This document shows positions 5,100 through 34,749 of a stretch of DNA of 34,749 bases, piece by piece (position 1 is the first letter of the stretch; every line of letters starts with the position of its first letter). Origin of the DNA: Catajapyx aquilonaris (Eukaryota). Location: the NCBI GenBank assembly GCA_000934665.2, contig JYFJ02004101.1, positions 1-34,749 of the forward strand. Reading direction: 5' to 3'. The notes under the pieces are model-generated. The model searched no databases. It worked only from the letters and a program-made list of their open reading frames with translations, and was not told the DNA's origin. The translations under genes were made by a program, and so were the position numbers.

Positions 5100-6831
5100 T
5101 TACATTTTTGTGGGATTATAGATATGTTTCAAAGGTGTGAGCCAATCCCCCAATTTTTGCAGGTAGAAGTCTGGGACTTGCTTGCGTTGTTCTGGGTCTG
5201 GTGACATCTTCCAAGTATTCACTTCTTGCATGGTGGTGATTCCAGAAAGAACCAAGATAGTTCTCAAGCCGCAGTTGGCTCCAAACAATATGTCAGTGTT
5301 ACCTCTGGAAGAAGAGAAGTAAAAAATCATGAAATGAATGCTCTCATTAATCAAGCAATATTTAGAAGGGTGCCTTGCCTGTCACCAATCATTATTGTCC
5401 TCTCTGGAACAACATCCTCATGGTCATGCTGAATTGACTTGAATATTTCTGGTGATGGTTTTCCCATTACAATTGGCTTTCTTCCAGTTGCATATTGCAC
5501 GGCAGCCACTATACTTCCACAGTCTGCCAATTAAAATGTGCTTTATGAAACTTATGCAAATTCATGTGCACACAATGGATGTACCAGGAATAGTCAAGCC
5601 TCTCCTGGTTGGCATCACTTCATCTGTGTTTGTGGCTATGAAGAGACATGACTTGTCCATCAGGTAGGACGATGCCTTCAGAAGCTTCACGTAACTCAAG
5701 GTCCAATCTAGCCCAACCACCACTGCACCTACGTCTGGTTCCAGGTGCATCTTGGAGAACCACTCATAGAAATTAGGAGGATGGATCATTGGGTCAGGCT
5801 GTTGGCAAACCATACACATTATTACAGGTGTGCACTTGTGTCATTTAGGTAGCAGAGCATTAACACGGAATAAAAAAATATACCCCACTCCCAAAGTGTC
5901 GAATATCCATCAAGTCCAGTTCATCTCCCAGCCCCTCAGTTGCAACCAAATATGCTTTTTTATTCTCCATGTTTTGCTTGCGTAGATATTTAGCAGTCAT
6001 GTATGCAGAGCTGTACAATTCGTGCTGAAAATATAAGGCCATTGTTAATAGCTTTGTCAAAGCATAAATACACTGCTTTAATAGATATGACGACAGGAAG
6101 ATTTGTCAAGGATTCAGTGATAATGCACATGATGGGTGGGTGGAAGAAGTAGATGCTTTATGGATATTGTAAAGTGATTTTTATTTTAGTGCTTGTCATT
6201 GTTTCTTACATGATGCAATATGATATATGGACTTGCAACAAACATAGACCTTTCAATGCCAATTGCTATTTACTCCAAAGTCTAAGTAAAAGGCAACTTC
6301 ATATAATATGGGAAGTATAGAACTATCAGTTTTCAATACCACCATTTTTATTTTGTTTACTACACGCAGATATAAAAATTGCTTATTATTCCTACTGACG
6401 CAATTACACTGATGTCTCTACTGTAGGCTACACTTAAGAAACAGCACGGGAAATAGGTTCCCACAGCAGTGCAATCTTAATTAGAAAATTTTAATTTCCA
6501 ATAGCACTTACCTCTTCTATAGGAAAATCCAATTTTTTAAATTTCTCGAAAAACTGTGGCGTAGATTTGGTGGCATTGTTGGTGATGTAGAAGACTTTCT
6601 TACCGTTCGATTTCAACATATGAATTACTTCCAGCGAACCATCGATAAGCTGCATGTCATCCCATAAAACCCCTAAAAATAAATAACAACACCATTATTA
6701 CCCCTTCTCCCGAATGCAAAAAAAAGACAATGCAGTACGTCACCATCACAGTCAGTCAAAACCGTGTCGAAAGATTCCAAAAACTTCCTCATTTCTGGAC
6801 GGCGATATGATGTGAGGAGTCGGGCTGCCAT
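5100..6831 (-). CDS. PGP: HAD-superfamily IIA phosphatase: phosphoglycolate / glycerol-3-phosphate phosphatase (PGP, 4-nitrophenylphosphatase-like), 317 aa, 6 exons
   Basis: Exons 6831-6744, 6672-6512, 6024-5884, 5798-5585, 5523-5379 and 5304-5100 join in phase (954 nt). HAD motifs present: I FDTVLTDCDGVLW, II YITNNATK, III MGKPS, IV IGDRGNTDILFG, plus FIATNTD and C-terminal LVLSGIT...PDFY. The last intron has a GC donor. Confidence 0.93.
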
Positions 6832-7628: not shown

Positions 7629-9975
7629 ATGGCAGACTCTATATTTCGGCCCCAAAATTCCCGTGAAGACCACAGCTGACCATGCGGAGTTCAAAATTTC
7701 AAGTGAGATCACACGGATAAGTTCGTAACATAAAAAATATGTACTCTCCTCATAGCTCTGCATCGAGAATCCTTCAACATAAAGGATTCTCGATATGCCA
7801 CTTAATAGGAGAAGGCTCATATTCCAAAATCTATTACGCAGAGCAGATCGACGCATTTGGAGAGACGCACAAACTAGCTTGCAAGGTAGTTTATTTTCAT
7901 AACCCACTCAATATTGCATTAAATTTCGCAATACAAATAATATTTCTTCGCAGGTGGTGAACACGGTTACAGCCCCGCAAGAGTATGTGAACAAATTTTT
8001 GGAGAGGGAAATAGAAATTTTGAACAAATTGAATCATCCGCGTGTCGTCTATATGACTGCAATACTTGAGCGAAGGAGCATGTATTACATGTTTATGACG
8101 TATGCAAGTAAAGGCGACCTCTTGGATTACCTTAAAATTGAGGGGCCTGTAGCAGAAGGAAGGGCAAGAAAATGGTTCGGTCAAATGGTGGAGGTGTGAT
8201 ATTTTATAATAACAACATCAATAATAATAATCGCTGGTGGTTTTAATGGATTGTAATATTTTTCGCAGGGTGTACAATATTTACATGCCATAGATGTTGC
8301 ACATAGGGACCTCAAGTGTGACAATATGCTCCTCACACAAAATTATGATATTATAATCACTGATTTCGGATTTTCCCGGATGTGCAGCGTTGGGGTAAGG
8401 ATGTGTGGAAGTTTAATTTAAACCTTGGTTGTCTCAAGATCATCCAAAGTTATAGGTGTATGTCAGCTTTGCTGTGAATATGTGAAATTATGGTGTAACT
8501 TTAGCATCCATTATTTTCAAATAATATAAAGAGTTTGGCAATATTCTAGCTTATGCAAAGAGGAGGTAAATTACTTAAACTTATTTTGAAGCAATTTGCA
8601 AAAAAAAACTACATTTTTATGTGAATTCAGGCATATCATCAAGTAGTCAGGTGGTATGAGTACCGGTACACTGCAGTACATGAAGCACCGGACAAAACAC
8701 TCAGTACAGTACTTTTTTTAAAAAATTCACTCTAAAGTAATTGTTTTTCTTGTAAATAAAGTTTGGGTTCATTTCACTTTCAAGGATTATATTTCTAAAC
8801 TAAGCAAACACAAGTGCCTAATCTTTTGATGTGTAATTATAAGTTTTGGTGAGTAATCTATTTTAGTATACATTACATAACACATTTCTCAGGGTTCTCC
8901 TGTTTCAAGCGAAACCTTCTGCGGATCTCTGACTTATGTGCCTCCAGAAATCCTCATGTGCAAGCCTTACGACCCTAAAAAGGTGGATGTGTGGGCCCTT
9001 GGTGTTACACTCTATGCAATGTTCAACAAGGCCTTGCCCTTTGATGGGGCCAACCTCAGGCAGCTTCTGGCAGCACAGATGACAAGGGGATGGAGATTTC
9101 TTGCTGGGGATAGGGTCAGCTCTCTTGCTCGAGATGTAGTCCAGCGCCTGCTGGAACCACAGGCTGGGTCGCGGCCTGACATTAATGCGGTATGTTGTGG
9201 ATGAAGTAGCACATGCAGTGGGGTGAAATGTTAGAATGTTCTTACTTGAAGCATTAATACATGTGAATTCCTTTTTAACCCTGAACTACTTAGGTGGCCG
9301 AAACACGGCTCCAACGATACATTTAAATCTCTGCTTATCAGCTAAATTGTTATATTGGACTTTTCATATACAGAAAGTGCAGTTCAGATAATTATGCTTC
9401 CAAAAAAAGTAAAACTCACACTGGTTTTTTTGACTACAAATTCATGGAAGGACAGGGGAAAAAATTTTAATTAACAAGTTACATCACTTTTAAATAGTGG
9501 TTCAAGCCGCTCAAGCTCCACCTAAGTAGTTAAGGGTTAACATAAATATATTCTTGACCTCTGACTCAATACTCCTTATCGTGTGATAATAATCAATTCA
9601 TGAACACACACAGACAAATATTTTAACACACACAAAAATACAAGCACTTATAAAATAATGCTGTGTGGTAACTAGCAGGTTTGGAACATGGCTTGGTTGG
9701 CCCCCTATCGGGAGGCAGCAGCCAAGAGAGAGAAGAGGGCACAAGAACAGGCGGATAGCAATCCTATATCAGAAAATCTTCTAGCAACAGATGACAGGCC
9801 AGGTCCATCCAGTAGAAGGACGAACGCAGAGTTGAAATTTGAAAAGGAGTCTCCAAAACCCAACACTATAGCAAGTCTAAAAATGTCAAAATCTGATGTG
9901 ACATTACAAATGGCAACTAGAGAGAGCCAAACTGATGCAACTTACAGAACTAGCACTTCTAAAACTGCCCTATAG
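7629..9975 (+). CDS. TSSK: Testis-specific serine/threonine protein kinase family member (CAMK group), about 387 aa, 6 exons
   Basis: Exons 7629-7702, 7756-7885, 7954-8193, 8269-8394, 8893-9189 and 9679-9975 join in phase. Motifs: IGEGSYS, LACK, KFLERE, HRDLKCDN, TDFGFSR, SETFCGSLTYVPPE, PYDPKKVDVWALGV. Exon 1 is the least certain; the alternative start is the ATG at 7739. Confidence 0.9.
9279..9536. mobile_element. piggyBac-type MITE (258 bp) in TSSK intron 5
   Basis: TTAA TSD at 9275-9278 and 9537-9540; 19-bp TIRs ccctgaactacttaggtgg and ccacctaagtagttaaggg, one mismatch. Confidence 0.9.
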
Positions 9976-18200: not shown

Positions 18201-21200
18201 GACATTCTGGGGATCATCTCACGTACTCGTGGGGGAGGGACATGCTTCACGTTTTCCATGCTGCCGTGGGCTGTCTTGCGAAGGTTGGATGATGAAAATG
18301 ACAAGGTGGATGACATTGGAGGCGAGCCTTTTCCTAGAGCCTGGGAGTTTGGACAGAACAGGACATGACAGGCATGAACAAATACCCAGCATGAACTAAA
18401 CTTCAATCAAGAGGAATCAGATTTCCTGTATCAACATGATGCAGTATTAGTCTGTTGCCCCACTTTAAAATATTTTGAAGTTGTTGTCTCACCAATTAAA
18501 AATAAATAAATTAAGCAGTACATCAGGGAAGAGCGATGGGTTCTCCTTTCAAGATGTTTAAAAAAATGTTTTGGTGAAAACAAGGGATGCACCAATACTA
18601 CATGTTAGCGAGGGTAATATTAACTGGCATATACTATATATATGAACTGGATACCAAAACAGTACCCTATAAAATGTATTAGAATAATGTGCTTAGTTAA
18701 TTATTCCATATGAATTTTGAATCCTGCATGAGATGGATCAGGTAGGCAACTCTGCAGGACACAGGCTTATTGTAGATGTAGACATGCTGATTGACACAAA
18801 ACTTCACTATGCTTGCAATTATAGCGTCGCACACTGGTCATTCACTATTACATTGACATTCTACTGTTCAAGTTTTGGAGTTCAAGTGTGTCGCCAAAAA
18901 ATATCCCAGACGCATATTTGAGCAATAAAATAATTTCAACAACTTTTTTACACTCAAACTCAATTCAGCTCATATTTCTTAACATTGCATTGGTGAATTC
19001 CTAAATTAGTATGTAAGTTACACCACTCAAACGGGCAAAATACTTGCATCCCACAAACTGTTACAATATGTACGAAAAGAACACCATCCACTTAAATATA
19101 GCATGGTTAAAAAGTTTCTCCTGATGACTCCCAGTTTTTCAGATAAAAGGTTAGCAATCTTGAAATATTAATGTGGTTCTTTTTTAACTTAAATCTGCTT
19201 GAATCACAGTGGCCATACTTTTATGTAAGTGCTATAACATGAGAAAAAGACGAGAGAGAAAAAACAAAACCATCGCACCAGACTATCAGGATCTCTAGTG
19301 ATTTTGAAAGTGTCAAGCCTACCATTTTTTATATACAGTAGCATTATTTCTAATACGTTTTAATCAACATCAATTATAGTATGCCACACAAAAATACAGA
19401 AAAAAGTGAAAAAAGCATCTGCCCAATACTGCAATCAAGCTGAAGACACAAAATGCCGCTGTGAGTGGGGAGAAACTTTCCTGCCATGCTGCAAACAGGA
19501 AATCCACAATCATTCATATTTTACTTTTCTATTCTATTCCTGAGGGTATGATGTTAGCTTTTACTAATCAGAGTGACTCTAGATTTTGAGAACCGCCATT
19601 ATTTAAACAAATACAGTAAAACTTCTATAAGTCGAACCTCCATGGGACCGGAAAAAAACTTTGAGTTAGAGAAGTTTGGATTTTTTAAAGCACAGAACTC
19701 TTTAAGGAAGCCTATCTTTATATCCAGCGACGAAAGATGTTCAAAACTTTAAAATAACTATCACTATCACACTTACAAGGTTCCTCATTGTTTTGTTGTA
19801 AAAAAACCTCCGTTATGGACATTTGCCTACTCTTAGATTCAAGGATTCAATTGTCACAATATTGAGTCAAACACTTCTTTCGCTCATCTGATAGACTGAG
19901 ATCAGGAAATTGAGCATTTCTGTACATGTGGCCTACTCTTGACCCTTCGGCTGGAAAATGAGAACATTTTCTCTACTCGCCAACATGAGTCATGAACTTC
20001 GACTTAGGGAGACTGAAAATGCATTGATATCCCATCGTAAGGCCCTGCCAGCACTTCAAGTTATGGAGAACTTCGGGTTATAGAAATTCGAGTTAGGGAA
20101 GTTTATTTCCTATTGTGACTAACCAAGCTCATCATTTTCTTCAAGTTATAAAGAACTTCGACTTAGGGAAGTTCGACTTATGGAAGTTTTACTGTATTAA
20201 CACGCATGAATCAAGTTTACATTCACTTCTCTTGTCAGACTCTCACATTCAAAATGCATACCTGAACACTTTTTGACGACATATCAAACCCTTGAGGAGA
20301 CCCTATTGGAGTTGATGTTGCTGTTGGGAACGGTGAGTTGCGAGGTATCATTGGTGGTTTTTCACACAACTTGCGCCTCTCTTCTGCTACCTAAAAGACA
20401 ATGCAATCATGTAGTGTTAACTTTTTAAATGCAACATCATGAGCAAAAAAGATGGGCATGACTGGTCACAAATGTTACACATTCCCTGGAATGCTAAAAA
20501 AAAAAAAAAAACTGGCAAAAGGATGATGCTGTACAATATCCAAAGTCAGTTATTACACCTCATGACTTTAGTTGCCTCAGATCTTCCAATAAAACAAAGA
20601 AAACCTGCAACCAGTTGTTTCCATTTTGTTGCTCACAATAGTACAAAAGGCAGTTGCTTAATTACCAACCTGGGAAATGACACATGACATTTCCAGCTCA
20701 GATTTTTTCAGCCTGTCTTTCATCTCAATGTTTTCTCTTTCCAAAGTTGTCTGCCTCAGCTTCAAATTGGAGATCTCAGTCAGCAATTCTAATTTCTGAG
20801 TCTCCAGCGATGATCGAGTCAGCAATTCCTGTAAGTAAACAGGTTGTCAGTGCTGCTGCACAATTAAACGACAACATTAAAAATGACTTACTCTCTGTAA
20901 TACATTCTCTGCCTTGACTAATTGCTCCTTTTTATCTCCCAGCATTTTATCCAGATCTCGTATTTTCTCTGTTTGTGCATCTATTTGCTCCGTTAAGACT
21001 GAAACCTGCATCTGAAGTGATTCCTTATCACCTTCCAAACGGTTCAGCCGTTCTTCAAACTCCAATGATGGACCCTAGAAAATTAAAAAATGCATTATTA
21101 TAGCACACCTTTAAAATTTTAATGTTGCCTCTAATCAGTCCAGTACATATTCCTCACAATTTACAATATGGTCCCAAAGTTTCATTGGGTGGGGGGAAGC

Positions 21201-24200
21201 TACTGAATTTTTATTTGGTATTTATGTAATTTATGTAGTCAACCAAATTGTTCAAAGGACCCATGAGACTTGTCCATATTTTTAACATATTTGTTCCCGG
21301 ACATATCCATAACTAAGTCAGTGCTAAGTTCACTGGTTGGATTTCATTTGAATATCCAAGGACAATATGAAAAAAAAAATCTACTGTTCCAATTTCCTGT
21401 TGTACCTTGAACATATTCCAAAGGTAACACTAAAAGCAGTTATTCAGTGCTGAGAGACACGCCAAACTTGGCTACAGCTTACTAAGAAAATACATCACAC
21501 GTCTACACTCGCATATCCTTATCACATCACTATGTACAAATGGCAATTTGGGCGATGCCATTATTTTTGAACAATGCAAAATTATTTTGATACTGTCATT
21601 TGTGTGCGCTTCCAGGGGGCGCTTCTGCTGATTACTGATTATCCCTTTCACCAAAAAATTGTTGCAATCATTACTTGGCAAAGCCACTGAAAATTACGGT
21701 ACACTATAGGCACATTTTAATTAAAAGATTATTGCATTAAAACTTAACACTACGGAAAATGTTCCCAAACAACTTTTTAGAATGTCGTATATACATTGGG
21801 TTGAGGCAGTAATTATTAATACTAATAGTGAATTTTGTGCTTCTAAAATACCGTGAATTATTTTTCAAATTTTAATGGATGTGATGAATAAAAATAACAA
21901 TGATGAGGCATAAAAAATCATTATGGGGGTACGAGGTAGTAACATACATCTTTAAAATGTTACTTTGATGCCGTAACATCAAGCAAAATGTTAGTGAAAT
22001 CTAATGTTAACGTGCTCAAGAAGTTGCGCTGACCCTACTCTGTGCACACGTGAGCTTCTGTGAGTTGAAAACGAAATGTCCTGATCTGTACATAACACAA
22101 GACCGACAACAGTGGCATACTCTATACTGTATATGTCTTACTAAACATAAAAAGGAATGCATTTGTGCAAACATTGGACTACCTTGAGGAAGTACTTCCA
22201 CTGGCAAAGTTCGGGCGAACCTGCCACATCTCCACAGCAGTAACACGGTGGAACAGGGGCATGAAAACTGTATCGATCACAACCTCGATGTCTATAAAAA
22301 TCCCTGGAGAAGAGACACATCTCCTCCCTGGGCAGCATGTGACAGGCCATGCTCCGTCTATGCCCAGATCCTTGGTATGAACACCTATCCCATGGTGTAT
22401 GCTCATCGCACTCATAGCCTGCCTCACCACAAGAGTCATCCTGTGCAAATTCAGCGTCTCCACTATAACAAAAGCTGTGGCATACAGCTGCTGTGGTGCG
22501 AAGAGGAAGCGAGAGAGAGTGGCGCTGATCCGCTGGAGACTGGGCTCTCCTAACTGGTGATTTGTACCTAGGTGTTTGTGTGTTGCACTCCCGTACATGT
22601 GCTTGCTTCACTTTGGTGGCACAGGGTGACGTACGATGCTTTGGTTGCTGATTCCATTTCTGTGGTGTGTTACGGTCTGGGGTGCGTTTTGCATTGGAAG
22701 CCAGTTCACGTCCATCAGCTTCCCTACGCGGGGTGTAGAGAGGTGTCCCATGATTCCCATGGATTTCAGTATTCTCTGCTCCTTCGGGAGGTATGTTCAG
22801 GTCCCGCCGACTTGCCATTGCTTTGCTCACCCATCGGAAATCCCGGCCGCACGCTTTTCCTGCAGAAGAATTATGGCAGTGGCCCCTTGCGGCATTGCTT
22901 TTTGGGGGCGCAAGTGACATGTAACAAATTATTTCTGGAAGCCGTAAAAAGGGACCATTTCGCACTGTGATGAAATCAGTGTGGCTCTATTTCTGGGTTA
23001 GAGTCACAGACCTGGATGTTGGACCTATGCCCAGTGTTTTGGCAACACTTGAAAATTCATGCTAATGGCCTCTCTTGACTGCCTATCTGGAAACACTTAC
23101 GCGGCTACGAACTGAGTGAATTAGTATCAAACCTTCCATAGATGAGGTGATTCCTACTTTCCCTTTCGAATTGGATGTGGTAGTAGACGAAGGTGTATTA
23201 TTGCTTGGAGCTTCCATGCTCAAGAGATCACTGGCATCGCTGGAATCTGAGCCAACTGAACCTGAGGGAGGTGCTTTGAGAGTAGACTCATCCTCACTGC
23301 TGGATGCACTAGTGTCGCCATCACCTTTCGGAACAGCTAGGAGGCAAAAGTAGCCCAACTTTTTGACAAGATGTTGCCAATGTTTACATGCCATGTACTA
23401 CTATAATTAACGATACAAATTTTGATAAGTTAATGCAATTAGCAATTTAGCATGAATGGCATCCGCAAACATGGAAATTAGCCATGAGTGAAAATATTAA
23501 TAAATATCAATAATATCAAGACATGGCATATTACTACTCCCATATGCTCCCAGCCAGAACAATGTGGCCTAATAAAGTATAGAACATGACCCTGAATTCG
23601 TCTGTCATACTGGATCTCTCCACAATTCTGGGGATAGGAGTGAAGCTGCTATGACCCTCTTGAGAAATGATGCTAACCTTTGGTCCCAGCCTCTACTCCC
23701 TGGCTACACTTGAACCTCTCCTTCTTGGCACCATCCCGGAAGTAGCAGTTGGGAATGCCTTGTTCATTTTCTTGTTCTTCCTCCTCCTCCTCCTCCTCCT
23801 CCTCCTCTTCCTCTTCTCCTTCCTCTTCCTCATCTTCTACCTCTTCTTCTTCCTCATCTAGTGAGTCAGCGCTGTTGCTATCTTCGCTGGAGCATGAAAT
23901 TGGGCCTTTCGTGCCAATCCTCTTGGAAACCTTCGATATTGATGGGGGAGGGGGAGGGGGTATGGGAGGGAGACGACGACCTCCAATGTGTGATGATGGA
24001 GGTGGTGGAGGGGGATCAGGTGGGGGGGCATGTAAGGGGCGTGGACCACCACCCACGACTGGCCCCTTTGCCAGAGACTGCCCTCCTCCACTGCCTCCCC
24101 TCCCACCCAGGATTATTTTAGAAGCAGTCGCCATTCAAACCAAGCACCACAATCTTTCTTCTCTTCATCCCTTTACTACACCTCTGATGTCCCCAAATGT

Positions 24201-27200
24201 CACTTGCTGGGTTAGCCGTACAAGGAACTTGAGGCACTTGTGTTGTCAACAGCAAGCTGCACTGTACTGCACTATGGTGGTAATGTGATCTGGTTTCTTC
24301 ATTAAGTAATCAAGGGGTAGTCCATAAAATGTGACAAGATTGTCAGATGCATGTCTAACCAGAAAGGCAAAATACCACAATGCACGCTACTATCTGAAAT
24401 ATCTCCCAAGTGACTGCAAATCGATGAAATTTTAAAACAGCCTATTGTATCACTTCAGTACCACGAAGCACATCATAAAATGTGTAAGCAATATTCACTT
24501 AAACACACACCAGTCATGTACGCACGACTGTACTGTGTTCTCCATATTTAATATTTGACTAATATATTAGTTTTTAGAATTAATATGAGCTTATCATTAA
24601 TGATGCACACTTCTAGTACTCAATGCTTGTCACACATTATGGACAACTCCACTGACAATGCGACTACCGCCTGATTGAAAAATCCACCAAAATCTTCCGG
24701 TCCAGTCAAATCACACGCGCAGCAGACACATTGCCAACAAGCAAATTCCGTAACAGCAAGGGTGTCTGGACCCTCCCCCTCCCCTTTTCAAAGTGTCCCG
24801 ACCACCAGGTGGTGCTGGAACCAGGCCGGTAGGAAGTGATGCACAAACAAGATGTCCACCTGCCTCACTCCTCTACACACTTCCACTACCCTAAGACCAT
24901 CCCCCAATGGTCTAGTTCTCCTTTCCTTGCCAGTCAGTGCACTGTTATATATTTAGGTTTTCCCCTTTTCCAGATGAGGGAGCCAGGCTCTGCCTTGGCT
25001 CTCTGTCGCCATTCCAAAAAGGAACATGTTGGTGGGAGGAGACTCATGCTTCTTTACAAAAAAAAATAAAGGTTATAAAAAAAAAGGAAGAAATCTCTTG
25101 GCTACCCTCCATGACTCAGGCTCATAAGGGCTTTTCTCAATGAGCTTCTGTTCCTTGCAAGTTCAGCTTGAAATGTCTCTCCAGCAGTTGTTCTGAGGCC
25201 GCATTAATAGAGTGGGAGGGCAATTAGAATGATGGCGTCAGTCGGGTAGCATTATAAGTGAACTAATGACCTAGTGCCATTGGCCATCGCTCATACACCT
25301 TGAACCTACTTCAAGTCAGTTAGCTAAATGAGGTCATTAACTCTCTCATGCACAAGCCCTATCAATTATCTTCAATAAAAGCCAATCCACCATGTGTTTA
25401 GTTTTAAAAAATATCTCCAGATATTATGTGATATAAAACGCATTTAAGTGCAAATGCACCATCAGTGCACATACATGTGCTTTTGATTGAATTTATTGCA
25501 TGTTACAAGTTCCTGCTACTAGAGCATTTAACTGAAATGATAGGAAAACCCCAAACACCAGTGCTGCTTAAAATAGCCATCCCTAGGGATGAAACATTAA
25601 TGCTCACTAAAAGGTCATTTTTAGCATTAACGAAGTGCTAGTTATGCCTGTTGGAAGCATTTCAAAGCACAGCCTCTAAAACAGCTGCAAAAATTATGTC
25701 CCCGACTATTTACTCTACAAATACACACCCTCTTTTATATGTGGAGAGGGATGTATCCTCGTGCTCCATTCATGACAATTTGCCAACGATTGGCATCAGA
25801 GCAGCATATCACCTTTGGAACAAGGATATATAGACTACTTCCCTGTTGTTTTCTTAACTTCTTGTAAGGAATGGACGAAAATAGATTGGGTGTCATGTGT
25901 CAGTTTGGGGTAAAGGACATGCAAAAACTTGGGTGCATAGGTTGTCAACCTTTCATCCCCCCCTAGAAAAGAGTATCATTCTCACCTCTGATGGAAAAAA
26001 ATATCCGTTTGTGCCTTGATTCCTACAACACACTGAATCATAGCTGGGACTCCTCACTATCGATGACACTTGTTTTGGAAGTGGAGGTCTTGGTGGCAAC
26101 CCTTGAGGTCCGAGTGAGGGCAGGCTTCCCCATGGGTCACTCTTGGACTTTGAGTTCGGCAGGGGAGGCCTTGGAGGCAAATCCCATTGCCTGTCATCTT
26201 CCACCTGGTAAGCAACCCAAGGGTCACTCTCACCGTTGGCACCTTGCCACCCCTCCTTATTGTTGTCATACACTGACAGAGGTCTGCTGGCAACCCACTC
26301 TTGCGGATTTGGTGATTCCACTGGGTGCACCGCACAGTCCCATTGTGAACCTCGTCTTCTGCGTGGAGTTGGTGATGGTCTCAGTGTCAGCAGAAATGTC
26401 ACTTCCTCGTCACTAGAATCCCAATTGTTGGTGTTCCGTGCATTCCCTTCTCCCCGCATTGTTCCAGCCACGTCCAACTCTCCTTGAGCTATGTGCAAGG
26501 CATGCCTTAATTGCCTTTCTTACACTTAAGTGGCAATTGGGAACAGGCTCTGGAGTGAGCACCACTTTTCATCTGGGTTAGCAGTGTGTCAGTATGCATG
26601 TGTGGGAGTAACAACAGATTTGTCTCCACTCTCCCAGAATGACGTCTGCCTTGTTTAGACTATTACCCCTCACTTTTTGTACAGTGTGTTTTTTTTTTTT
26701 GTCACATCCTGTACCACTCAGCAAGCCAACAATTCTCTGATCTTTTTTGCACAACACATCATCACTTCCTCACTACCAGTACAGTATTAGACGAACTTGG
26801 AACAAAAAGGGTTCTTCCACCAGTGGGCAATTTTTTGTCCACCAAGGCTGCCCTGTCCACAAATGTTCAACATGAGTCACCAACTCGCCACATGCACTGC
26901 CGACTTAGCTCCCTTCCACTGCTGTCATTGTCTTTTGCCAAACAAGACTGAAGTTCGGTTTAGTGTGAAACTGCGTGTATAGGTGAATGGTGTGTGTGTG
27001 TGTGCAGGCTTGTGTGTGTCTGTGCAGAGAGAGAGGGAGCTCAGGGGAAACTCCCTTGTCTCTCATACATCACATGGGTCTAATCCTAGACTCCCCCTCC
27101 TACCAAAAATCCAGGCAGTTTCTGACGACAATTTCAAGAGTTGGAAACACCAATTCCTGCCACCAATAACTTATTTCCAATTGTCCCTCAGGGTGCAATT

Positions 27201-29338
27201 ATCAAACTGTGTAGCATGTGCTAATTAACTTCAGTGTGAACTGCTCATGACGATGCATTACGGATGTTAATCCTGCAACACTACTTCATTCATTTTGATG
27301 ATGATAACAATTTTTGACTCCTGCTATTTTGACTAATAAGCCTCTTCCTTGCCAACTGACAACTCATTCATATTTCCAAGCCCTAAAAATACCAGCTTGC
27401 AGTTGAAGAAACCTGCCAACCTGCCAAAAGCACCGGCCTTTTTAAACCTTTGCACTTTCTTGGCTTCATTTCATTTCCTCCTGCAGACAAGTGCAGGAAA
27501 TTCCACAAACCACACCTCACGTCCTGCATTCTGAGTGGTAACTTTGAAGTAATTCCAGAAATGCAGCTGCCTCATTAACGTCACTTGTGTCCCATTTACC
27601 TACCACATAACTTTTCTTTCTTTTAAAAGTGGTGAGAAACCTACCTGCTTAATCTCTTCATCCTCCTTGGCAGATTTGATCCACTGGCTCAGCATTGCCA
27701 CTGTATCTTCATCCAAATCTGGGGTACTTCTACCTTGCGATGACAGTGCAGATTTCAACATCTGAACTGCTTCCTCGATGGACATCACGTTTGTGTCAAC
27801 AGCTGCTCCCAACTCCGATTTGGTACCTGAAATGTGGGATTATCCACTTGACTCACTCATTTCACCATACTGTAGATGTGCCAACTGCAACCTTACTAAC
27901 GATCAGTAGAATATGGAAACATGCATGCTTAGTTTATACTCTAGAAATTCAGGCAATACCTCCCTTTTTAAATAACAACATTCAATGTGCTCTGAAGTTA
28001 ATACTGATGTCACAAATTCCCTAAAAGTGGATGCAAAGAAGTGGCACTATAACTAAACCCTGCTATGAAACTCTTTTTATTTTTTACCTTTAGAAATAAT
28101 TTTAGCTTTACAGTTGGTTACTGCTAATTAGAAAAATTCATTCTGGTGTAGACGAGATTCATGATACAATAATACCCCTCATTACTAACATTTAAAAATG
28201 AGCGAGAGAATACCAAAATACCATACAACACCATAAAAATTAAAATTCAGGTGGAAAAATTCTATTATTGGACAGTTTTAAAGTTTAATTAAATAAGGAG
28301 ATTCAAATGAAGTCATCAAATCAATTCACCTGCATTATTCGTAAATATTAGAGAATGATGCTTTTCAAGCTTATGGTAATACTTATTTATTTATTTATTT
28401 ATTTAATTAATTAATTTACCCCATTGGGAGAATCGGCGCTCCATTAGGGGGGTGGAATACCACCATTTCACAGCTCAATTTTTTAATGCAATTTATTCTT
28501 CACACATGGATGGGGCTAAGGATAGGAAGAGAAGGAAGTGGCTGTGGCCTATTATACGGAAGCGACCCCGGAATTATCCTAGGAAGACCGTGGAAAACCA
28601 CAGAAAACCACGGTCAGGGTCACCGGCCCCAGGACCTCCCGATTAGCAGTCGGACCCCTTAACCACCCCACCAACCTGCTTCGATAGCTTATGGTAATAC
28701 TTCATAAGCAGTGTAAATTCATACTATGGCAATTTTTACGCATTTTGTTGGGGTTGTAATAAAATCAATATCACAATACAGGTTTCCTTATATAAGGCAT
28801 CTCTTTTTTGCATTCTTTCAGTTGAACTTCACAAGAAATAAAATCAATATCATATACAGCTTCCCTTACGTAATGCATCTCTGAACGGTCTAGATTCATG
28901 ACTAATAAGACTTAACAGCTCAGCTCTTTGCTAGTACTCCAGTAATTTTCCTTTTTCAGTCACATGAGTAATATGGGCATGGAAACCACAATGACATCAC
29001 ATGCCAAAATCACAGATGTAACCCTGGTGTTCCAAAAGTTACTTGGAGCTGCCTCCCAATCGAATCTGATGTGACCTACGCTGACATAATTATCCAATAG
29101 CAAGCATTACTGCGGGCTGTAAATCAGCAGCATAATTTGGCCACAACGTTCATGTCACTACTTTATTTGTGAGTGTCAACATAATTCCACATTGCAGGCC
29201 CATGATATGTATACCTGCAATGATTCCGTCCATCTGTTGCAGGGCGGCCTCGAGAAGCCTGCTGGCCTCGGCGTGGGCCGACCTCACTTGCTCTTCCGGC
29301 TGCTGCTGGTGGACCACCTCCTCCTCCGCATTGCCCAT
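12209..29338 (-). CDS. Liprin-beta: Liprin-beta (PPFIBP family): N-terminal coiled coil plus three SAM domains, about 785 aa, 15 coding exons (canonical isoform)
   Basis: Exons 29338-29215, 27826-27645, 21074-20892, 20828-20670, 20390-20262, 18340-18227, 18136-17944, 16360-16234, 16174-15883, 15757-15494, 15094-14923, 14765-14557, 12565-12437, 12363-12304 and 12229-12209, all GT-AG and phase-consistent. Motifs: ASRLLEAALQQMDGIIAG, RLEGDKESLQMQVSVLTEQ, LLTRSSLETQKLEL, SSAPNLAETEK, FRRGGLRATAQPRLGWS, and SAM segments HPLHRKKL, RWLDDIGLPQH, WTNHRVMEWLRSVDLAEYAPNLRGSGVHG. The last two small exons are less certain; the alternative stop is at 12416. Confidence 0.92.
14230..14478. mobile_element. 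MITE with 33-bp TIRs and AATT TSD (Sola-like) in a liprin-beta intron
   Basis: gaatgggttagtgccataacgtgctaagccaca (14230-14262) versus 14446-14478, one mismatch; aatt at 14226-14229 and 14479-14482. The superfamily is inferred from the 4-bp AWWT TSD only. Confidence 0.88.
15159..15341. mobile_element. PIF/Harbinger-like MITE family, copy 3
   Basis: TIRs ggtgcatttacatatgagcgatttga and tccaatcactcacatgtaaacgccgc, flanked by taaa and ttaa; internal palindrome. Confidence 0.8.
19614..20194. mobile_element. Tc1/mariner (pogo/Tigger-like) non-autonomous element, 581 bp
   Basis: TA TSD; 27-bp TIRs cagtaaaacttctataagtcgaacctc and gaagttcgacttatggaagttttactg (two mismatches); several subterminal gaacttcgacttaggga-like direct repeats. 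Confidence 0.9.
22183..22934 (-). CDS. Candidate alternative N-terminal exon C of liprin-beta (basic, then Cys/His-rich, PPCYCCG)
   Basis: About 250 open codons in an otherwise AT-rich intron. Phase-1 acceptor tttttacggcttccag or its own ATG at 22920; phase-0 donor AAG|gtagtc joins exon 21074 in frame. Confidence 0.6.
23101..23336 (-). CDS. Candidate alternative exon B2 of liprin-beta (Ser/Asp-rich)
   Basis: Acceptor ttttgcctcctag (phase 1), open frame AVPKGDGDTSASSSEDE..., consensus donor CGC|gtaagt (phase 0) compatible with exon 21074. Confidence 0.65.
23678..24134 (-). CDS. Candidate alternative first exon B1 of liprin-beta (Gly/Pro-rich, poly-Glu)
   Basis: ATG 24134, 152 codons plus 1 nt, ending at phase-1 donor AAAG|gttagc. 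This matches the phase-1 acceptor at 23337-23338. Confidence 0.65.
23770..23860. repeat. (TCC/TTC)n trinucleotide tract encoding poly-Glu on the minus strand
   Basis: Read directly from the sequence; lies within candidate exon B1. Confidence 0.9.
25986..26459 (-). CDS. Candidate alternative N-terminal exon A of liprin-beta (SVYDN motif, two copies of SDPW...LPPRPPLP)
   Basis: 158 codons from ATG 26459 to a phase-0 donor GAG|gtgaga (25985), in frame with the coiled-coil exon at 21074. The two LPPRPPLP copies differ only at synonymous third positions. A possible phase-1 acceptor lies at 26489-26490. Confidence 0.7.
28385..28685 (-). mobile_element. tRNA-derived SINE (about 300 bp) in liprin-beta intron 1
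   Basis: Perfect 17-bp TSD agcttatggtaatactt (28368-28384 and 28686-28702). On the minus strand: A-box-like tggtggggtggttaag, anticodon-arm-like tccga-ctGCTaa-tcggg, and a (TAAA)n tail. Confidence 0.9.
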
Positions 29339-33563: not shown

Positions 33564-34580
33564 TCATTCATGAGTCTTGCTGAGCAGATGTGAGTTAAAG
33601 TCATACAGGTTGGAGCATTGCTCCCCACATATGTTGCACTTCCAAGGGTTGCTTTCTGAGTGACATCCCTTATGCAGGAAGTAGAGAGTCTGGTCTGGAA
33701 AGATGATGCCACAATAGATGCACTGAAGCATGCGCTTGTGGACTGGGGGTGGAGCAGGGTAAGTCTCCTGATTCGTGGACGTTATAGAGTCCAATGGTGA
33801 ACAGTCAGATAGCTGCCGACGCTGCTGTTGGGGTGGTGGATGATGTTGGTGATGTCGGTGATGATGCCTCCTCAGATCATCCCTCAGGAGGGACTTGAGT
33901 GGTGAGACCTTGATGAGTGATATGGATGAGGAGCACCTGTCACGAGCTGCATTGTCTGGTGCCTGCTCCAGTGTGGACTGGAGCAGTGAGTGGGATGAGG
34001 ATGGTACAGGTGCAGTAGCACTGGGACCACCATCACCAGCATCGTCAAACTCCTTGTCCTCTGGCTCCTGTTTCACTGTGGCACTGCCAGCAGCTTCCTC
34101 ATCTACCCTCTTCTCATTGCTGCTGCTGGGTAGATTCGAGTTTGAATCTGAAGGTGGTGATCCTGCATTGGACGGTGACCTAGTCCCAGATGATCCCATG
34201 TGATGATGTATCACCAGGTCTTCTGGATGCATGTTATCATCGTTCATGTGGTGATGGTGGTGATGATGGTGATGGTGGTTGCGGATGGGGGAGTCGGCCT
34301 TAGCAGCCAAGAAGTGTGATGTGATTGGGTAGGAGGCATAGTAGGCAGGATTGGTAGGAGGAGGAGGGCTCTGGCCACCACCACCGACTGCGCTGCTGCT
34401 GCTGCCTCCGGGTATGTATGGCCCACCACCACTGGTAGCCATAGAGATCTCAATGTGAGGAGCCAAAAAGTGTGGAGGGACACTCAGGGTGGCAGAGTCT
34501 GACTGGGGTTTGCAATCTTCATCCATTGGAGCACTGCCACCATCACTGGTACCTCCGCAGTGGTTGCTTGGAGAGTGAAC
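33564..34580 (-). CDS. Terminal exon of an Ikaros/Hunchback-family (Pegasus-like) C2H2 zinc-finger protein; gene continues beyond the window
   Basis: Acceptor atatctcttcag|GTT at 34581-34582, then 339 codons including the stop. It ends in the paired fingers CIYCGIIFPDQTLYFLHKGCH...PWKCNICGEQC...FNSHLLSKTHE, the arrangement of the Ikaros/Hunchback C-terminal dimerisation fingers. The linker has poly-His tracts. Confidence 0.85.
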   Translation of the reverse strand, partial: VHSPSNHCGGTSDGGSAPMDEDCKPQSDSATLSVPPHFLAPHIEISMATSGGGPYIPGGSSSSAVGGGGQSPPPPTNPAYYASYPITSHFLAAKADSPIRNHHHHHHHHHHMNDDNMHPEDLVIHHHMGSSGTRSPSNAGSPPSDSNSNLPSSSNEKRVDEEAAGSATVKQEPEDKEFDDAGDGGPSATAPVPSSSHSLLQSTLEQAPDNAARDRCSSSISLIKVSPLKSLLRDDLRRHHHRHHQHHPPPQQQRRQLSDCSPLDSITSTNQETYPAPPPVHKRMLQCIYCGIIFPDQTLYFLHKGCHSESNPWKCNICGEQCSNLYDFNSHLLSKTHE

Positions 34581-34749
34581 CTGAAGAGATATGATTAAGT
34601 AAATATGCAAACCACGCAAGAATAAGCAATAAAGAGTCCAGTCAATCTATCAGGGTCATTCCATGTCAATTCACCGAGCTTTTAAGGAAAATTGACCCTT
34701 GGGTTGTCAGATTTTGACGAAAATCGGCGAATCGCTTTAATTACGTCTT

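Follow-up and report, generated by a model that had tools for sequence, protein, structure and literature searches.

A 34,749-nucleotide (nt) stretch of the Catajapyx aquilonaris genome (contig JYFJ02004101.1, positions 1 to 34,749 of assembly GCA_000934665.2; hereafter the window) carries on its minus strand a liprin-beta gene whose second intron contains three long, same-strand modules with the appearance of coding exons. These modules are called A, B (which consists of two parts, B1 and B2) and C. The reading that we favor, by a modest measure, is that intron 2 holds extra coding exons that would stand in for the canonical N-terminus, encoded by exons 1 and 2, on a body composed of a coiled coil and three SAM domains. 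Likewise, we lean toward the statement that at least two of the modules are real exons that are joined to the first coiled-coil exon, whose acceptor lies at position 21074.

The Host Gene

The gene that harbors the modules was recognized as liprin-beta by Pfam SAM matches, by tblastn searches and by comparison with solved structures. Two of its exon open reading frames (ORFs) match Pfam SAM_1/SAM_2. Liprin-beta-2 queries from Pogona vitticeps and Centropristis striata align by tblastn with the N-terminal peptide, two coiled-coil exons and the SAM exons at 40-70% identity overall. Specifically, the N-terminal peptide (29272-29213) is 70% identical over 20 amino acids to the proteins of both species, the coiled-coil region (21059-20697) is 40-44% identical with E values of ~2e-19 to 4e-19, and the SAM exons (16125-14557) are 50-63% identical. 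The top solved-structure match is liprin-beta-1 (3TAD chain C, 1.6e-23), with liprin-alpha-2 far behind (4.7e-12), and the closest relatives returned from the protein database are vertebrate liprin-beta proteins with ~55% identity in the SAM region. Judged by these matches, the gene is a member of the liprin-beta (PPFIBP) family, nearer to liprin-beta than to liprin-alpha, with a predicted coiled coil followed by three tandem C-terminal SAM domains.

Intron 1 of this gene is 1,388 nt long and intron 2 is 6,570 nt long. The intron between the two coiled-coil exons (20829-20891, minus strand) measures 63 nt, and the module-bearing intron 2 is a size outlier within the gene.

Exon-Like Statistics of the Intronic Modules

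On the strand of liprin-beta, the modules resemble exons more than chance ORFs, and this assessment draws on their GC islands, their periodicity, their protein-level signatures, the closure of their ORFs at donor sites, and splice sites that were selected without regard to phase. In this AT-rich intron, GC content is 0.50-0.62 within the modules compared to 0.26-0.45 between them. ORF lengths were evaluated against 300 dinucleotide-preserving shuffles of either the intron or the module's own GC island. None of the 300 shuffles, whether of the intron or of the island, yielded an ORF as long as the 281 codons of module C. The 188-codon ORF of module A is borderline (3 of 300 shuffles), and the 153 codons of B1 slightly exceed the 95th percentile (143) obtained when its own island is shuffled. 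Thus, by ORF length alone, C is the only module that is clearly beyond chance.

Three-base periodicity was scored against 500 shuffles per module, on a scale where the known exons of the window range from 0.6 to 4.7 (exon 2 scores 3.10 and the first coiled-coil exon 3.82). Scores of 4.65 for B1, 3.75 for B2 and 3.37 for C were each matched by at most 1 of 500 shuffles. No shuffle matched B2, and the signal of C (p about 0.002) is due to its 3′ half. In both B2 and C, the periodicity is present without a tandem repeat. When 223 sliding segments of 450 nt were scanned, the 12 with the highest periodicity all fell on B, C, the coiled-coil exons, a large zinc-finger ORF located upstream, or ORFs at ~5251-5700 that we take to be exons of another, neighboring gene.

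Protein-level signatures are present in A and B2. The translation of module A is rich in Pro, Ser and Trp, with 15% Pro compared to the 6% expected from random translation, and includes two SDPW...LPPRPPLP units. A frame-blind search for the best ungapped 24-nt self-match in A returned a segment that encodes LPPRPPLP twice, exactly 27 codons apart. All five base differences between the two copies are at third positions and are synonymous, an outcome with a chance probability of C(8,5)/C(24,5), or ~0.0013. The adjacent SDPW pair exhibits one base difference, which is also synonymous. The DPW and PxxP-type motifs of A and the poly-proline tract of B are similar to short linear motifs that serve as ligands of AP-2 appendage, SH3, WW or profilin domains.

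Module B1 encodes poly-Pro followed by poly-Glu, wherein the Glu codons include 13 GAA and 16 GAG. In B2, 21 of the 78 residues are Ser (27%, versus 10% expected from random translation; P about 2e-5), and these are specified by 8 AGY and 13 TCN codons in the absence of a tandem repeat. The first half of the C translation is basic and rich in S/T-P, and its second half is rich in Cys and His. We consider it likely that B is a real coding exon, and only slightly less so that A is one.

Splice Sites and Reading Phases

Donor sites were scored with a simple matrix and acceptor sites by their pyrimidine tract, on the basis of consensus frequencies, and both were ranked among all 407 GT and 494 AG dinucleotides of the intron. 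The donor of exon 2 itself ranks first (6.08) and that of A ranks second (5.5), followed by B1 at rank 13 (2.6), B2 at rank 15 (2.2) and C at rank 43 (0.0); known donors of the gene score from 0.25 to 6.08. Among acceptors, that of C ranks 2, that of B2 ranks 25 and the candidate for A ranks 173, and the acceptor of the first coiled-coil exon scores 5.35. At the starts of the A and B1 ORFs, the best acceptors score −1.1 and −9.08, respectively, and neither is usable. Because A and B1 each begin with their own ATG and have no usable acceptor, we read them as first exons that would need promoters within the intron. B2 and C, whose acceptors are good and whose phase class is that of exon 2, are read as internal cassettes. 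A and B1 are thus probably alternative first exons, and B2 looks like a Ser-rich internal cassette that would connect either B1 or exon 1 with the coiled-coil exon.

A phase-blind check was more informative. For each of the 37 ORFs in the window that reach 100 codons, the top-scoring donor within the final 15 codons and the top-scoring acceptor within the initial 25 codons were selected irrespective of phase. In A, B2 and C, these donors are uniformly in phase 0, which matches the first coiled-coil exon, and these acceptors are uniformly in phase 1, which matches the donors of exon 1 and B1. The best donor of B1 is in phase 1. If the sites are independent, the agreement in six of six cases for A, B2 and C has a probability of (1/3)^6, or ~1 in 700. 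In addition, the ORFs of the modules all end within 1-13 codons past their donors, and the frame of B1 shuts one codon past its donor.

Exon 2, A (if entered at 26488), B2 and C belong to one phase class, with entry in phase 1 and exit in phase 0 (Table 1). When exon 1 or B1 is joined in phase 1 to any of these four, all junction codons are sense codons and no stop is created. Given this common class, inclusion of two of them in the same transcript would break the frame. Serial inclusion of exon 2 followed by A, B or C was considered and rejected: the good acceptors in the frame of C are in phase 1 or 2 and never 0, and the sole phase-0 AG ahead of the ATG of A has no pyrimidine tract.

Table 1. 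Exons and modules at the 5′ end of the liprin-beta gene, in order of transcription (slashes mark splice borders)
Feature	Position	Strand	Start or entry	Donor	Length
Exon 1, coding part	29215-29338	minus	ATG at 29338	CAG/GTATAC after 29215, phase 1	
Exon 2, canonical	27645-27826	minus	acceptor ...tttcag/G, phase 1	CAG/GTAGGT, phase 0	182 nt
Module A, candidate entry	26488	minus	AG, phase 1, weak		
Module A	25986-26459	minus	ATG at 26459	GAG/GTGAGA after 25986, phase 0	474 nt, 158 codons
Module B1	23678-24134	minus	ATG at 24134, right behind an in-frame stop	AAG/GTTAGC after 23678, phase 1	
Module B2	23101-23336	minus	acceptor ...gcctcctag/C, phase 1	CGC/GTAAGT, phase 0	236 nt
Module C	22183-22934	minus	acceptor ...cttccag/A, phase 1	AAG/GTAGTC, phase 0	752 nt, 250 codons
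First coiled-coil exon, which all heads would share	20892-21074	minus	acceptor, phase 0		

The modules were first noticed in a reading of the letters alone, which listed their coordinates, frames, ATGs, splice dinucleotides and phases, and all of these proved correct when the minus strand was read. That original prediction also held that the modules are mutually dissimilar, and indeed an all-against-all blastp comparison returned only proline-rich low-complexity matches between A and B1. Its proposal that exon 2, A, B2 and C can all be entered in phase 1 is accurate with respect to phase, although the acceptor of A at 26488 is poor. The count of at least four heads is best taken as an upper reading, given that C is doubtful as a coding exon and that entry into A from exon 1 in phase 1 is unlikely. 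Finally, the idea of interchangeable heads on a coiled-coil/SAM scaffold agrees with the exon-like statistics and the matching phases, whereas the joining of the modules to the coiled-coil exon is a step that we infer.

Could the Modules Be Non-Coding?

One alternative is that the modules are non-coding, GC-rich islands within the intron, such as a decayed insert, regulatory DNA, or non-coding or 5′ untranslated exons. If so, their reading frames and splice-like motifs would be by-products of base composition and of the choice of sites. Several observations weigh against coding exons and toward this explanation. The islands are poor in stops in several frames: other frames on both strands remain open for 120-180 codons, and shuffled islands have a median longest ORF of ~100 codons. 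For example, a 180-codon ORF lies antisense to B1 (23746-24288, plus strand) that is longer than the B1 frame and was reached by 5 of 300 shuffles. This antisense frame is probably a by-product of the poly-Glu and poly-Pro coding repeats.

Periodicity is also uneven among the modules. The score of A (1.49), which 16% of shuffles equalled, is not significant, nor is that of the 5′ half of C (1.20), and the periodicity of B1 owes much to a GAR/TCC-type trinucleotide array at 23775-23859. The modules also fare poorly in codon-usage log-odds trained on 1,254 codons from the window, with values around zero or below, although this test has low power and scored 4 of its 15 training exons negative as well. 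Most known exons score 0.08-0.23. The values for A (0.033) and B1 (0.028) are about zero, although each is the best of six frames, whereas two other frames score higher than that of B2 (0.026) and another frame scores higher than that of C (−0.048).

The splice evidence is subject to a similar caution. Of the remaining 33 ORFs that reach 100 codons, 5 also have a donor with a score of 2 or better near their end, at least one of which is a real exon, and thus a good donor alone is weak evidence. Moreover, the donor of module C is ordinary. The amino-acid composition of C is close to a random translation of its own bases, with the exception of Cys (7% versus 3%), and no fold was predicted for it: AlphaFold used without an alignment gave an uninformative mean predicted local distance difference test (pLDDT) score of 35.

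The absence of detectable relatives points in the same direction. Searches of Pfam, two protein collections, metagenome contigs, the ESM Atlas and solved structures gave no homologue for A, B1 or C (not every module was compared with each resource), and B2 was searched in Pfam only. Pfam returned no family for A or C, and only sub-threshold low-complexity matches for B1, B2 and exon 2. Neither A nor C matched metagenome contigs or gave a usable match in the ESM Atlas, where the recognition values of 1212 for A and 1353 for C are low and within the range typical of shuffled sequences. No solved structure matched A. A search with A against longer proteins was blank, and two candidate relatives of the other modules were rejected. 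A search with C against 1.84 billion representative proteins gave one match (E = 1e-4) that corresponds to a short repeat in an unrelated protein of 2,131 amino acids, and a search with B1 against longer proteins gave one low-complexity plant protein. However, because the nearest liprin-beta is only ~55% identical and the heads are of low complexity, these blanks carry little weight in either direction.

Several of the results presented above are difficult to reconcile with non-coding islands. Shuffled sequences do not reproduce the ORF of C, and the periodicity of B2 and C arises in the absence of tandem repeats. The duplicated motif in A differs at synonymous positions only, the Ser enrichment in B2 is drawn from both codon families, and the best splice sites chosen blind to phase fall in the required phases without exception. 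We therefore regard a non-coding origin as unlikely, though it merits serious consideration.

A transposable-element origin was also examined, and the window provides no support for it: Pfam recognized no transposon domain in the modules, flanking direct or inverted terminal repeats are absent from 21075-27644, and the modules have no further copies within the window. Rfam families and tRNAs (as searched by ARAGORN) are likewise absent from the entire window.

Possible Nested Genes or a Single Real Head

Another possibility is that the modules represent one or more independent nested genes on the same strand, which would be lineage-specific, encode disordered proteins, possess separate ends and remain unconnected to liprin-beta. 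A and B1 do start with their own ATGs, and unspliced read-through would encounter stops shortly past each donor, such that short stand-alone proteins could be made. In addition, the heads share nothing with liprin-beta. However, the modules end at donor-like sites rather than simply at stops, and the donors that close A, B2 and C all share the phase of the liprin exon that follows. A single gene that comprises A, B and C fails with these sites, since the modules cannot be joined in frame except as B1-B2 or B1-C. Furthermore, searches recovered no stand-alone relative of C, whatever its length (relatives of similar length were not searched for A and B1). We consider independent nested genes to be quite unlikely.

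It is also conceivable that B, with its parts B1 and B2, is the only true alternative head, and that A and C are non-functional or are only occasionally exonized. The anatomy of B is the most coherent of the three, with an ATG behind a stop, a frame that closes at the donor, a phase-1 join between its two parts and periodicity in both, while A lacks a period-3 signal and C has the weakest signs of coding. This explanation must nevertheless accommodate an A donor that is surpassed in the intron only by that of exon 2, together with the synonymous differences in the A motif pair, and a module C that has the longest ORF and the second-best acceptor of the intron. For these reasons, we judge it very unlikely that B is the sole real head.

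Module C is the least certain of the modules because its composition is near random, its donor is middling and it receives no support from codon usage. Whether it is a real coding exon is, in our estimation, evenly balanced. It contains in-frame ATGs at 22920 and 22818, as well as internal splice-like sites that may be relevant to its use. A donor at TGG/GTGAGC (last exon base 22831, phase 0, score 3.32) and a donor-like site at 22428 (phase 1, score 4.44) both score above the terminal donor of C, and phase-1 acceptors with good scores are present at 22859, 22490 and 22487. These predicted sites suggest that C may undergo internal splicing or be included as a shorter exon, wherein the donor at 22831 would yield a 104-nt version.

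Proposed Arrangement of Alternative N-Termini

If the extra modules are indeed coding exons of liprin-beta, then A and B1 would serve as alternative first exons that are driven by promoters inside intron 2. A GC-rich block at 24700-25000 (minus strand; GC content 0.49-0.54) is located ~0.6 kb upstream of the B1 ATG, with a raised CpG ratio at 24500-24800, and is a candidate promoter or 5′ untranslated region for B1. B2 and C would be internal cassettes in the phase class of exon 2 and would be entered from B1 or from exon 1. Since exon 2, A, B2 and C leave in phase 0 and enter in phase 1, such that placing them in series breaks the frame, the heads are predicted to be mutually exclusive, with just one of these four present ahead of the coiled-coil exon in each transcript. 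The expected products would be exon 1-exon 2-body, A-body and B1-B2-body, and possibly B1-C-body or exon 1-C-body.

We speculate that the heads act as disordered, motif-bearing arms. Module A would contribute two DPW and two LPPRPPLP motifs, and B would contribute poly-Pro, poly-Glu and a Ser-rich tract. Different heads could thereby recruit different partners to a single dimerizing scaffold. In this proposal, the anatomy, the phases and the coding-like statistics of A, B and, in part, C are established by the sequence, and the internal promoters, the splicing to the first coiled-coil exon, the translation of the heads and their function are all inferred.

A more ambitious version of this proposal would hold that at least three long, unrelated heads exist beside the canonical one, namely A (with DPW and PxxP motifs reminiscent of endocytic adaptors), B (poly-Pro/Glu/Ser) and C (basic and Cys-rich). 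The phase rule would make these heads both interchangeable and exclusive. The locus would then constitute a variable-head cluster of non-paralogues, in which the choice of promoter or splice site re-addresses one scaffold to other partner networks. We offer this version tentatively and consider it, on balance, doubtful in its entirety.

If the modules are real, they would equip a conserved scaffold involved in adhesion and synapses with three further N-termini, each of considerable size and unannotated, and would illustrate how lineage-specific disordered arms can be attached to an old body through one phase rule. This would be relevant to the annotation of the genome and to the role of the poorly understood liprin-beta N-terminus. 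The general understanding of alternative promoters or splicing would remain unchanged. The modules are a probable new instance of an already known layout of alternative N-termini.

Comparison with Known Systems

Alternative heads of a simpler kind are present among predicted vertebrate liprin-beta-2 isoforms. A set of 28 models from Pogona vitticeps and Centropristis, all of them automatic predictions, includes 16 with the canonical head and 7 that begin downstream. Heads of 16-17 amino acids in 6 models, and a different head of 15 amino acids in 1, are joined just before the coiled-coil exon. In the P. vitticeps models (for example, XP_078240111.1 and XP_078240110.1), heads with their own ATG are joined ahead of the same coiled-coil exon and replace the canonical ~93 amino acids, as is proposed here. 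However, the lizard heads comprise 15-17 residues, compared to 158, 230 and 250 motif-rich residues for the candidate heads described herein, and the two sets are dissimilar in sequence. The lizard heads probably reflect incidental ATGs of alternative promoters.

A full-text literature search on liprin-beta isoforms and PPFIBP alternative promoters revealed, as judged from the listings, no description of long N-terminal heads. The sections of one review (PMC13311821) that mention liprin-beta are silent on its isoforms.

In genes with alternative first exons, several 5′ exons with their own start codons are spliced to a common body. A and B1 resemble such exons in that both start at an ATG of their own and end in a donor whose frame fits the shared exon (for B1, by way of B2). 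In contrast, B2 and C have good acceptors and resemble cassettes. The protocadherin and UGT1A clusters have large variable 5′ exons ahead of constant exons, with one variable exon chosen per transcript, and these variable exons are paralogous. The layout predicted for intron 2 is the same, but the modules are unrelated apart from the proline-rich matches between A and B1. Similarly, classical mutually exclusive exons of the Dscam type arise by tandem duplication and are homologous and similar in length. The exons compared here share with them a common phase class and the predicted use of one per transcript, but are unrelated and range from 182 to 752 nt.

Neighboring Features of the Window

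Within intron 1 of the liprin-beta gene, at ~28400-28700 on the minus strand, a GC-rich block (0.54) is followed by an (AAAT)n-like tail. This element has the look of a short interspersed nuclear element, and both ARAGORN and Rfam were blank for it.

The longest ORF of the window (33564-34646, minus strand) has 360 codons and a period-3 score of 5.35. It encodes poly-His and poly-Gly/Ser tracts and two C2H2-like zinc-finger motifs at its end. No Pfam family was matched at E ≤ 0.01, and the finger pair is reminiscent of the C-terminal fingers of Ikaros/hunchback-type factors. This ORF is probably the last exon of an upstream neighbor on the same strand. Downstream of the liprin-beta gene and on the opposite strand (7903-9204, plus) lies a protein-kinase gene with at least three exon ORFs, for which Pfam Pkinase matches of 7e-11 and 1.6e-15 were obtained.

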